From contig JAZOCZ010000122.1 in the NCBI GenBank assembly GCA_045596755.1, forward strand, positions 1 through 49,631: a stretch of 49,631 bases of DNA. The letters run 5' to 3'. A program made the translations under genes and the position numbers. The first letter of the stretch is position 1. Each line of letters opens with the position of its first letter. This DNA is from Eubacteriales bacterium. GTDB lineage: Bacteria; Bacillota; Clostridia; Oscillospirales; CAG-382. Below the pieces are notes generated by a model that ran no database searches, had not been told where the DNA came from, and worked only from the letters and a program-made list of their open reading frames with translations. Positions 7,045 through 7,848 of this stretch are shown in pieces.

Positions 7045-7197
7045 AATTCGGAATTCGGAATTCGGAATTCGGAATTCGGAATTGAGGAAATTTTTCTCCC
7101 GTTGGTCGAAAAATATTTTATATAATTGCTTTTCGAACGCAGAGAGAAAAGCTACCTTTATTCCGCATTCCGCATTTCGCATTTCGCATTCCGAATT
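7045..7197. repeat. Composite repeat element, copy 1: heptamer array, spacer, hairpin, inverted heptamer array
   Basis: (AATTCGG)x5 at 7045-7079. Hairpin GCTTTTC-N11-GAAAAGC at 7128-7152. TACCTTTATTCCG follows, then ATTCCGC ATTCCGC ATTTCGC ATTTCGC ATTCCGA ATT at 7160-7197. Confidence 0.7.
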
Positions 7198-7270
7198 GAA
7201 TAAATTTTTCTGTATATTTTCCCATTTTCTGTACAAAATATAATCAAATACGAAAGAGAGGTAATAAAAA

Positions 7271-7444
7271 ATGAGTCCCAAAGAATTACAATACGTTGAC
7301 GACGCTCTCAGCCACGAAAAGTTTTTGAAAACACAATGTGAAAACACCGCACAAAGACTATCCAACGCAGACCTTAAAAACTTTGTAAACCAACTCGCAC
7401 GTGACCATGAAGAACTTTTCGGAAAACTCTTTTCAACACTTTAA
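7271..7444 (+). CDS. Small coat-F-like/helical protein (57 aa), below the ORF-track length cutoff
   Basis: ATG at 7271 is preceded by AAAGAGAGG. It translates to MSPKELQYVDDALSHEKFLKTQCENTAQRLSNADLKNFVNQLARDHEELFGKLFSTL and stops at 7442-7444. It is 22 nt upstream of the coat-F gene and has the same RBS style. Confidence 0.6.
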   Translation: MSPKELQYVDDALSHEKFLKTQCENTAQRLSNADLKNFVNQLARDHEELFGKLFSTL

Positions 7445-7466
7445 CTAATTAAAGAGAGGTATTTTT

Positions 7467-7712
7467 ATGGATGACAAAACCTTAATGGAAAATTTACTCC
7501 TTACAACAAAAGGCGCTTGCGATTTATATCTTCACGGATGTATCGAAGCCTCAAACGATTCAGTAAAGCAAACGTTCAACACCGCCCTTGACAAATCCTT
7601 GAAAATGCAAAAAGATATTTACTCAAAGATGGAAGCAAACGGCTGGTATCCAAAAGAAAACGCAGAGCAACAGCAGATAAATAAAACCAAAACAAAGTTT
7701 CAGGCACAATAA
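7467..7712 (+). CDS. Spore coat protein F (Coat_F domain) family protein
   Basis: MDDKTLMENLLLTTKGACDLYLHGCIEASNDSVKQTFNTALDKSLKMQKDIYSKMEANGWY matches the Coat_F pattern (...K...Y......EA.N..........L.......Y..M...GWY). RBS is AAAGAGAGG. Confidence 0.75.
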   Translation: MDDKTLMENLLLTTKGACDLYLHGCIEASNDSVKQTFNTALDKSLKMQKDIYSKMEANGWYPKENAEQQQINKTKTKFQAQ

Positions 7713-7717
7713 TGGAT

Positions 7718-7848
7718 AATTCGGAATTCGGAATGCGCAATTCGTAATAATTGGAAAGCTCGGTTCGAGGATAAAAACTCGGATTGAGCTTTTTATTATT
7801 AAAATTGCTTTTTGACCGCAGGAAAAAAGCTACCTTTATTCCGAATTC
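7718..7848. repeat. Composite repeat element, copy 2, same orientation as copy 1
   Basis: AATTCGG AATTCGG AATGCGC AATTCGT at 7718-7745. Hairpin GCTTTTT-N10-AAAAAGC at 7807-7830, then TACCTTTATTCCGAATTC. The core at 7803-7843 is near-identical to 7124-7165. Confidence 0.65.
7755..7797 (+). terminator. Intrinsic terminator of the coat-F bicistron
   Basis: AAAGCTCGGTTCGAG / CTCGGATTGAGCTTT forms a ~15-bp stem with G:U pairs and an 8-nt loop, followed by TTTTTATTATT. Confidence 0.7.

Follow-up and report, generated by a model that had tools for sequence, protein, structure and literature searches.

Genes and Repeats of the Locus

The window considered here is the whole 49,631-nt contig JAZOCZ010000122.1 of a Eubacteriales bacterium, and the subject of this work is a group of short palindromic sequences ending in tandem heptamer arrays, which lie in neighboring spacers around a two-gene coat operon. 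These sequences probably represent a dispersed family of non-autonomous palindromic intergenic repeats with microsatellite arms, of the REPIN/BIME type (repetitive extragenic palindrome (REP) doublets; bacterial interspersed mosaic elements) or of the type of miniature inverted-repeat transposable elements (MITEs). The window belongs to the core chromosome of a spore-forming member of Clostridia and has genes for RNase Y, YmdB, PGK, RNase R, SecG, SpoIIR, AddAB and FtsK/SpoIIIE. The features discussed below are the following (CDS, coding sequence; TRF, Tandem Repeats Finder; R1, a covariance model built from the half-unit of these elements).

5170–5249, unstranded: small element of the family, between convergent genes
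6940–7020, unstranded: second palindrome adjoining copy 1, with heptamer-like units AGGCATT/AGGCAAG/AGGCAGG
7038–7204, unstranded: element B (copy 1), two inverted half-units flanking an AT-rich center at 7115–7127
7045–7083, plus strand: left array of element B, (AATTCGG)5 then AATT, 39 of 39 nt perfectly periodic
7090–7114, plus strand: left half-unit hairpin ATTTTTC-TCCCGTTGGTC-GAAAAAT (N11 loop), mirroring the right hairpin
7128–7152, plus strand: right half-unit hairpin GCTTTTC-GAACGCAGAGA-GAAAAGC (N11 loop), followed by the junction TACCTTTA at 7153–7160
7160–7197, minus strand: right array of element B (TRF), diverged CCGAATT type, with ATTCCGC twice, ATTTCGC twice and ATTCCGA
7271–7712, plus strand: two-gene coat operon, a neighbor of the elements and not part of them
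7718–7848, unstranded: element C (copy 2), consisting of an array, a terminator, an R1-type hairpin, a junction and an array remnant
44461–44491, minus strand: in-frame CCGAATT-type array of 4.4 units in a loop insertion of a Cu/Zn-SOD-like CDS, encoding NYSEFRISNSEL

Tandem arrays were located with TRF on the window sequence. A period of 7 was returned for 7045–7083 (5.6 copies, 100% match), and the arrays at 7160–7197 (5.4 copies, 90% match), 7718–7748 (4.4 copies, 83% match) and 44461–44491 (4.4 copies) were found as well. Pairs of AATTCGG units with at most 2 mismatches occur 19 times in the window (0.89 expected). The core common to copies 1 and 2 comprises 47 nt with 89% identity, and the 18-mer AAAGCTACCTTTATTCCG is present exactly at both 7148 and 7826 (0.06 expected). 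By R1, the window holds three strong half-units and one small element. The initial annotation, which was made from the letters alone, had described the heptamer arrays, the hairpins at 7128–7152 and 7807–7830, a nearly identical core in the two copies, and shorter relatives at 5170–5249 and within a CDS at 44461–44491; all of these were recovered.

Structure of Element B and of the Half-Unit

Element B is a long imperfect palindrome, since its 75-nt arms (7038–7112 and 7130–7204) are 76% complementary. Folded as single-stranded DNA, it reaches −35.9 kcal/mol (z = −4.7). The right array (7160–7197) is 84% complementary to the left array (7045–7083), and the two thus constitute terminal inverted repeats. 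The perfect run of the left array exceeds 34 nt, a length rare in other genomes. Both half-units are recognized by R1, the left one at 7077–7118 on the minus strand (62.5 bits) and the right one at 7124–7165 on the plus strand (62.8 bits).

Read from the center outward, a half-unit is composed of a hairpin, an 8-nt junction (TTCCTCAA or TACCTTTA) and a (CCGAATT)n array. The hairpin is 25 nt long and includes a 7-bp stem, G-A opposite G-A, 2 bp and a variable 3-nt loop, so that its loop follows the pattern GA-(2 bp)-NNN-(2 bp)-GA. The NNN center differs between lineages; at 7102–7104 it is TTG in the window and CCC in the relative L226 (loci from other genomes are given as L numbers). The motif GTAG (opposite strand of GCTAC) stands beside the right-type hairpins in the window, L137 and L226; its place is taken by GAAA, GAAG or AAAG in the left-type half-units and in L139 and L211.

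Ten distinct half-units, taken from the window, L137, L139, L211, L222 and L226, were aligned. Their nine stem pairs are 93% paired, and four of these pairs are changed on both sides (G-C to A-U, C-G to U-A twice, and C-G to G-C). A single C:G to T:A stem change between the two copies had been taken in the initial annotation as an effect of selection on structure; it is one of these four, and the proposed covariation analysis of aligned copies bears this reading out. The covariation score is 0.32 versus 0.18 ± 0.03 in shuffled alignments (0 of 500 shuffles reach 0.32), and it falls to 0.04–0.13 when the partners are slid by 1–3 columns. The alignment supports the view that the half-unit hairpin is under structural selection.

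Element C, the Third Element and the Coat Operon

The left array of element C (7718–7748) begins 5 nt past the coat-F stop codon. It is followed by the intrinsic terminator of the coat operon (7755–7799, −32.1 kcal/mol, z = −5.4), the hairpin GCTTTTT-N10-AAAAAGC (7807–7830), the junction TACCTTTA and what remains of the right array, TTCCGAATTC. This remnant ends at 7848, and the stop codon of a convergent 116-aa gene lies 18 nt away. Over its full length the element forms one fold, within which the operon terminator is nested (z = −5.3). R1 finds one strong half-unit in it (7803–7843, plus strand, 56.7 bits), and copy 2 therefore has in common with copy 1 the right half-unit only, the left half of copy 2 being made up of an array and the strong coat-operon terminator. 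The description of two direct copies with the same order of parts thus holds for the core, which is in direct orientation, but not for the elements as wholes, because copy 1 is itself a palindrome and only its right half-unit recurs in copy 2.

The small element at 5170–5249 comes after a terminator hairpin (5126–5163), to which a weak R1 match at 5117–5162 on the minus strand corresponds. It has a left array AATTCGTAGGATTCGT (5170–5185) and a right array ATTCCGAATTACGAATT (5233–5249); the latter ends 5 nt before the stop codon of a minus-strand 323-aa gene and is the only part common to the close relative L226. In the window, the distances between array ends and the three nearby stop codons are therefore 5, 5 and 18 nt; in copy 1 the CCGAATT-type arrays point toward both divergent genes.

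The coat operon includes an 81-aa ORF (open reading frame; 7467–7712), which passes the Pfam Coat_F cut-off, and a 57-aa ORF (7271–7444), which is weakly Coat_F-like (Pfam E = 0.01, under the cut-off). The assignment of both genes as coat-F-like is thus confirmed for the former and falls below the cut-off for the latter.

History of the Locus and Rates of Change

Orthologous loci were collected through the neighboring MBL hydrolase. Five relatives (L211, L212 and L214–L216; MBL 81–86% identical) keep the gene order of 116 aa, CoatF and 57 aa, followed divergently by MBL and 323 aa. Their spacer between MBL and the coat genes is only 84–102 bp long and has no element or array, and in L212 only 39 bp lie downstream of coat-F. 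Both elements are present at the same sites in L226, L227, L229, L232 and L233 (MBL 94%, different samples). The copy-1 site of L236 (MBL 90.6%) is occupied by a different variant with single units at its ends, another interior and a hairpin resembling 5126–5163. Since five relatives have the coat-F pair without the elements, the pair is ancestral and the elements were added later. As judged from the orthologous loci, entry of the elements into three neighboring spacers after the split from the element-free relatives of the same gene order is shown.

The arrays and the remaining parts of the elements change in different ways. Relative to L226, the left array of copy 1 has 5 versus 3 units (a 14-nt indel), and the left array of copy 2 differs by a 7-nt indel; in the right array of copy 1, a 7-nt indel leaves the close relatives one unit fewer. 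These alignments show that, as far as they reach, AATTCGG-type arrays change length in whole 7-nt units. Five contigs from different samples have the same arrays, which are therefore not hypervariable over such a time span.

Substitutions per site in six flanking genes amount to 0.27–0.36 at third codon positions and to 0.01–0.12 at first and second positions, and other alignable spacers have 0.10–0.39. The corresponding values are 0.045–0.063 (two alignments) for the copy-1 spacer (6914–7270) and 0.019 for the copy-2 spacer (7713–7866), with no substitution versus L226 across 7750–7899. In these alignments the non-array parts of the elements are shown to change far more slowly than synonymous sites. 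The two low-divergence peaks fall on the two elements, and the genes between them diverge normally (74–92% identity per 100 nt). Such low divergence indicates either constraint or recent replacement, as far as alignments can tell.

The 22-nt spacer between the coat genes (7445–7466) is the most diverged versus L226 (13 of its 22 positions differ in one alignment; another gives 0.26 substitutions per aligned site), in contrast with the element-bearing spacers.

Comparison with the closest relative, L222, gives a mosaic of identity: 82% over 34224–43861, 73% in the SOD gene and 97.6% over 44861–49631. The last block encodes a tRNA, a deaminase and an LRR/dockerin protein, and its identity suggests recent recombination or transfer.

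Copies in Other Genomes and the Array within the SOD-like Gene

A search of related genomes for the core and the arrays, as proposed in the initial annotation, yields further copies. In L137 (Oscillospiraceae SIG653), a stretch similar to copy 1 (91% identity over 139 nt, 94% over 121 nt) lies between unrelated genes, and the rest of that locus has no similarity to the window. L139 carries the core. A related element is found in L211 (6566–6810); the window has no element in that spacer. The L211 element has a changed unit in each arm, AATTAGT/AATTAGG on the left and CCTAATT/GCTAATT on the right. L222 has an extra element (9697–9860) in the spacer between BacA and SodC, which is absent from the window (43888–44000). 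It consists, in order, of (AATTCGG)3, two hairpins (a terminator, then one of R1 type) and an AATTTTC/CATTTTC array. A metagenome scan with the core-junction pattern gave five matches, all by chance and within coding sequence.

Array-bounded units could also be seen duplicated whole in tandem, with lengths of ~130 bp in L137 (2227–2521) and ~180 bp in L119 (7–387).

The Cu/Zn-SOD-like gene (44001–44753) has a loop insertion of ~85 aa composed of Pro-rich 30-nt tandem repeats (44275–44443) and the CCGAATT array; most homologues are 160–170 aa long and have no insertion. At the same site of the SOD-like gene, L222 (10437–10471, P0121) has four perfect units, and the array length is kept. None of the six frames of the CCGAATT array contains a stop codon, and a one-unit change in it would shift the reading frame. 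As the array is open in every frame, the elements can mislead gene callers.

AATTCGG-Type Arrays across Bacteria

An exact (AATTCGG)3 search in GTDB species genomes gave at least 120 stretches; the locus statistics in this section refer to those listed, each locus being examined over 8 kb only. Among the matches listed are Acidobacteriota (60–74% G+C), several Clostridia families and Planctomycetota, as well as Bacteroidota, Cyanobacteria, Chloroflexota, Poribacteria and Patescibacteria. Such arrays lie inside long contigs (some megabase-sized) and have imperfect units and lineage-specific flanks, which rules out an assembly artefact.

The arrays are of bounded size. Perfect run lengths peak at 24–25 and 32–33 nt, with almost none longer than 34 nt. 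Whole perfect units number 3 in 84 arrays, 4 in 56 and 5 in 4; with imperfect units counted, the mode is 4 units (105 of 178 arrays). Period 7 predominates in the array-bearing loci (222 perfect arrays, with no more than 18 of any other period between 4 and 11), and 77 of these 222 have units outside the AATTCCG class, e.g., GTCAAAA, AAATCCG, AAATTCG and AATTAGG (L128 at ~7260–7330; L091–L210).

A frequent plan is the convergent pair, (AATTCGG)n, 30–800 bp and (CCGAATT)n. The interior is taxon-specific and could be nothing, short hairpins, ~100–250 bp of non-coding sequence or a whole small gene, such as a carboxymuconolactone-decarboxylase-like gene (read from the translation) or a Nudix-like one. 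The polarity at gene boundaries is biased: within 45 nt downstream of stop codons, 53 arrays are AATTCGG-sense and 16 are CCGAATT-sense (ORFs of at least 150 codons, 120 loci listed), and just upstream of ORF starts CCGAATT reads toward the gene in 60 cases versus 32. The window arrays follow the same rule. The 60 nt inward of arrays fold better than the 60 nt outward (p = 0.002).

R1 had no match in 100 array-bearing loci except its own training sequences (L137 and L139). Another half-unit type, consisting of the hairpin GTCCGC-N3/4-GCGGAC, ACATTC and an array, occurs in L092 (2768–2971) and L078 (3990–4140). Its presence in other taxa means that the plan of a hairpin beside a heptamer array is not limited to the family of the window.

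In viral contigs searched with the seventh base left free, 90 stretches were found, mostly AATTCGT, with 8 of the exact G-type; two control patterns of the same composition gave 2 stretches each. In viral-classified contigs (41–65% G+C), AATTCGT/ACGAATT arrays are much commoner than the G-type. They often form tight palindromes directly at start codons (L006, L034, L035, L022, L026, L042), and this placement differs from that of the G-type.

Clustering of EcoRI sites was rejected as the point of the arrays. The T-type and CCGCATT variants have no GAATTC, so the EcoRI sites are incidental. To our knowledge, none of the Spo0A, CodY, Zur and CsrA boxes fits both G-type and T-type units, and these candidates were dropped.

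A broader and rather speculative view would regard AATTCG(G/T) arrays of bounded size (3–5 units, 24–33 nt) as a cross-phylum cis-element with fixed polarity at gene boundaries. It could be recognized by a widely conserved protein, or else it could form the termini of a tiny mobile DNA able to cross between phyla, and the Oscillospiraceae hairpin module would then be one lineage-specific cargo. We consider this view possible but doubtful.

Nature of the Elements

The elements of the window are probably members of a dispersed palindromic family, one of the options (REP/BIME- or MITE-like) already listed in the initial annotation. That option has gained ground, since the elements are dispersed (L137, L211, L222), palindromic and differently present or absent in relatives. 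The building block is the half-unit, comprising an outer AATTCGG-type array reading inward, the 8-nt junction and the conserved hairpin. Two inverted half-units make an element of 130–170 bp, the arms of which can pair as a long stem-loop or a cruciform. Array length presumably changes by slipped-strand mispairing. The elements probably act as structured DNA or RNA at gene boundaries, i.e., as a 3′-end stem-loop, terminator or insulator like REP/BIME sequences; such a role is proposed because the arrays abut stop codons, with hairpins or terminators between them. They presumably persist through this gene-boundary role and are probably spread by a trans-acting enzyme encoded elsewhere in the genome.

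Several observations weigh against this interpretation. The covariation comprises few independent events in the aligned set, because the half-units form only two sub-types. It is covariation and not stability that supports the hairpin: isolated half-unit RNA folds no better than shuffles (z = −0.07 to −1.3), and the 7-bp hairpin is thermodynamically marginal. A terminator role of the half-unit hairpins is therefore doubtful, and the core hairpin as an intrinsic terminator was discarded as unsupported. Mismatches between the arms (21 G-U versus 14 A-C) reveal no clear G-U bias toward RNA, a result that speaks neither for nor against pairing at the RNA level. The window has only three elements, clustered within 2.7 kb, plus one CDS array. 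No transposase or RAYT (REP-associated tyrosine transposase) domain was detected by Pfam among 42 window ORFs (including nearly all of at least 110 aa that do not overlap a longer ORF), in line with the earlier remark that no transposase is nearby. Clustering of the ORFs of the 120 loci listed for a linked enzyme returned only ABC transporters, kinases, Fer4, AcrB and similar families. No transposase of a parent autonomous insertion sequence (IS) with matching ends was found near the arrays in these loci, the adjoining genes being housekeeping ones. A target-site duplication could not be defined in alignments of filled and empty sites, because the elements end in variable arrays and the empty sites have diverged too far. 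Finally, the low substitution rate could come from recent recombination and not from constraint, because identity versus L222 is mosaic and substitution-free tracts run 30–50 nt into the flanking CDSs.

The last point leads to a rather unlikely alternative, in which the elements are purely selfish or neutral DNA, their similarity between lineages is due to horizontal exchange or transposition in the recent past, and the arrays are unstable microsatellites. The blocks of 97.6% beside 82% identity to L222, the tracts entering coding sequence, the presence/absence differences between close lineages, another variant at the same site in L236 and a near-identical copy in another genome (L137) would all fit it. 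It accounts poorly for two separate low-divergence peaks, each on an element, with normally diverging genes between them, or for compensatory changes that keep the hairpin stems while variation is concentrated at the loop center; the sameness of the arrays in five contigs from different samples also means that they are not hypermutable on that scale. Binding of an oligomeric DNA- or RNA-binding protein to the arrays (a regulator, a nucleoid or RNA chaperone, or a mobilizing enzyme), with ~4 units (28–33 nt) as its footprint and the hairpins secondary, is unlikely. It would explain why array size is bounded without geometric decay and why AATTCGG recurs across phyla along with the variant CCGCATT/AATGCGG, and there are parallels in the four-unit Xanthomonas GGGAATC repeats (PMC4692102), in the four-heptanucleotide elements of Geobacter (PMC2700814) and in the RNA-binding proteins proposed for TAACTGA repeats (PMC4679880). 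Yet there is no candidate protein and no gene family specifically tied to the arrays in the loci listed, close relatives differ by 1–2 units at the same sites (5 vs 3, 5 vs 4, 4 vs 5), the 7-bp spacing would put successive sites on different faces of B-DNA, and the window arrays lie outside the conserved coat-F promoter. A small regulatory RNA encoded by the conserved interior, with accessory arrays, is highly improbable. The interior is more conserved than synonymous sites, the hairpins are backed by covariation, and a TATAAT-like hexamer occurs in the AT-rich center; but a promoter scan gave no sigma-70-type site in the element, two-fold symmetry leaves no preferred strand, and a transcript from the central hexamer would start inside a hairpin stem. 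Moreover, Rfam assigns no family to the element: at the gathering threshold only tRNA was found in the window, and permissive thresholds added only generic long-hairpin matches far below threshold.

Two further explanations concern the neighboring genes. In Haemophilus influenzae, upstream 7-bp repeats of the hmw genes switch or tune expression through their unit number, and the present arrays could likewise be phase-variation (contingency) loci tuning the MBL hydrolase or the coat-F operon. This is very unlikely, even though unit number differs between close relatives, the array at 7160–7197 ends ~10 nt upstream of a conserved coat-F promoter block and a one-unit change in the SodC-like CDS array would shift the frame. 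The arrays lie outside the promoter that element-free relatives also conserve, and their length therefore leaves the spacing of the promoter hexamers unchanged. They are short (3–5 units) and identical in five contigs; two of the three elements are at gene 3′ ends, and the only array in a CDS (44461–44491) has the same length in a relative. According to the other explanation, which the initial annotation had raised, the two direct repeats are a recombination substrate that delivered or mobilized the coat-F pair as a cassette. This is scarcely credible. The 47-nt core does lie in direct orientation on either side of the two genes, but the pair occupies the same place in the same order in the five element-free relatives (L211, L212 and L214–L216), a finding named beforehand as one that would refute the idea. 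The coat-F genes also diverge like their neighbors (third codon positions, 0.27–0.28 substitutions per site), the copies are palindromes independent of one another, a third element is located in the next spacer but one, and a sequence like copy 1 occurs elsewhere without coat-F genes. The elements flanking coat-F reflect neighboring spacers that are each occupied, not a cassette.

Comparison with Known Repeats

Judged by analogy, the nearest functional counterparts of the palindromic family would be REP/BIME/REPIN sequences and bacterial MITEs. The latter include Correia elements (Neisseria), RUP and BOX (pneumococcus), bcr1 (Bacillus cereus) and the Rickettsia palindromic elements, which can lie in frame within genes. 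Like MITEs, the elements are non-coding, of 100–170 bp, modular, bounded by terminal inverted repeats and polymorphic in presence or absence, and the array at 44461–44491 is in frame inside a gene as Rickettsia palindromic elements can be. Unlike MITEs, they end in length-variable microsatellites and not in fixed inverted repeats, and no parent IS was found.

REP/BIME/REPIN sequences of E. coli and Pseudomonas are likewise short extragenic imperfect palindromes in which two inverted hairpin units build a longer hairpin (Bertels and Rainey 2011, PMC3116915; Di Nocera et al. 2013, PMC3733652). They share with the present elements a dispersed occurrence at gene ends, often right after stop codons, and the absence of a transposase in cis. 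In contrast, REPs have no tandem heptamer arms, of the tetranucleotides GTAG and CGTC that mark the foot of REP hairpins, GTAG is found here beside some half-units only, no RAYT was seen among the window ORFs scanned, copy number in the window is low, and the host belongs to Clostridia (Oscillospiraceae-like) and is not proteobacterial.

In sequence and kind, the nearest relatives are the intergenic heptamer repeats of bacteria (Xanthomonas, TAACTGA, Geobacter, STRR). Cyanobacterial STRR (short tandemly repeated repetitive) heptamers with nested small dispersed repeats were reportedly described by Mazel in 1990 and by Elhai in 2008. They are said to resemble the present arrays as intergenic tandem heptamers tied to small hairpin-forming mobile sequences; the units and taxa are other ones, and the small repeats reportedly insert into arrays, which gives direct flanks, unlike the inverted flanks here.

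The GGGAATC repeats of Xanthomonas are intergenic, mostly of four units and sometimes arranged as convergent inverted pairs (Rehm et al. 2015, PMC4692102), and the Xanthomonas variable-number tandem repeat (VNTR) locus Xe_34 has the units GATTCGG/GAATCGG/GAATTCG (PMC8002079). They are similar to the present arrays in their closely related 7-nt unit (CCGAATC versus CCGAATT), intergenic position, about four units, strain-variable unit number and lack of an explained function. GGGAATC is discussed as a G-quadruplex former, which AATTCGG cannot be, and no conserved hairpin module is described for it (PMC4692102). TAACTGA direct repeats of Beggiatoaceae, Cyanobacteria and Bacteroidetes (MacGregor 2015, PMC4679880) are also a single intergenic heptamer, repeated 2–6 times, which distant phyla share without a known spread mechanism. 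Most of them stand shortly before start codons, and hardly any are inverted (PMC4679880), in contrast with the stop-abutting inverted pairs here. Elements of four heptanucleotides are known in Geobacter (PMC2700814).

No account of AATTCGG/AATTCGT arrays or of the hairpin module was found in the literature, and searches with the exact repeat strings gave nothing relevant but the Xanthomonas VNTR table. As a bacterial repeat, the local element is of an ordinary kind; the AATTCGG arrays with the hairpin module are a new form of the known, unexplained heptamer repeats of bacteria. Such repeats have been known for decades and are over-represented, and no mechanism is accepted for any of them (STRR, GGGAATC, TAACTGA, Geobacter). 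The heptamer arms tie the local element to this widespread phenomenon and give it testable features: a modular anatomy (array, junction, covarying hairpin), dated gain and loss among close relatives, unit-step length change beside a slowly changing interior, and a unit common to Clostridia of the gut and Acidobacteriota of soil. With these features, a trans-acting factor can be tracked down if there is one. For the coat-F genes, a tempting but wrong cassette story is removed, and the elements are usable as strain markers.

The Adjacent AGGCA Palindrome

The second palindrome (6940–7020), which adjoins copy 1, has arms at 6963–6986 and 6997–7020 and a period of 7 at 6965–6987 (TRF). Indels of 7, 20 and 7 nt separate it from its counterpart in L226, and distant relatives do not have it. 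At the same site, L236 carries AGGCAAT/AGGCATT units.

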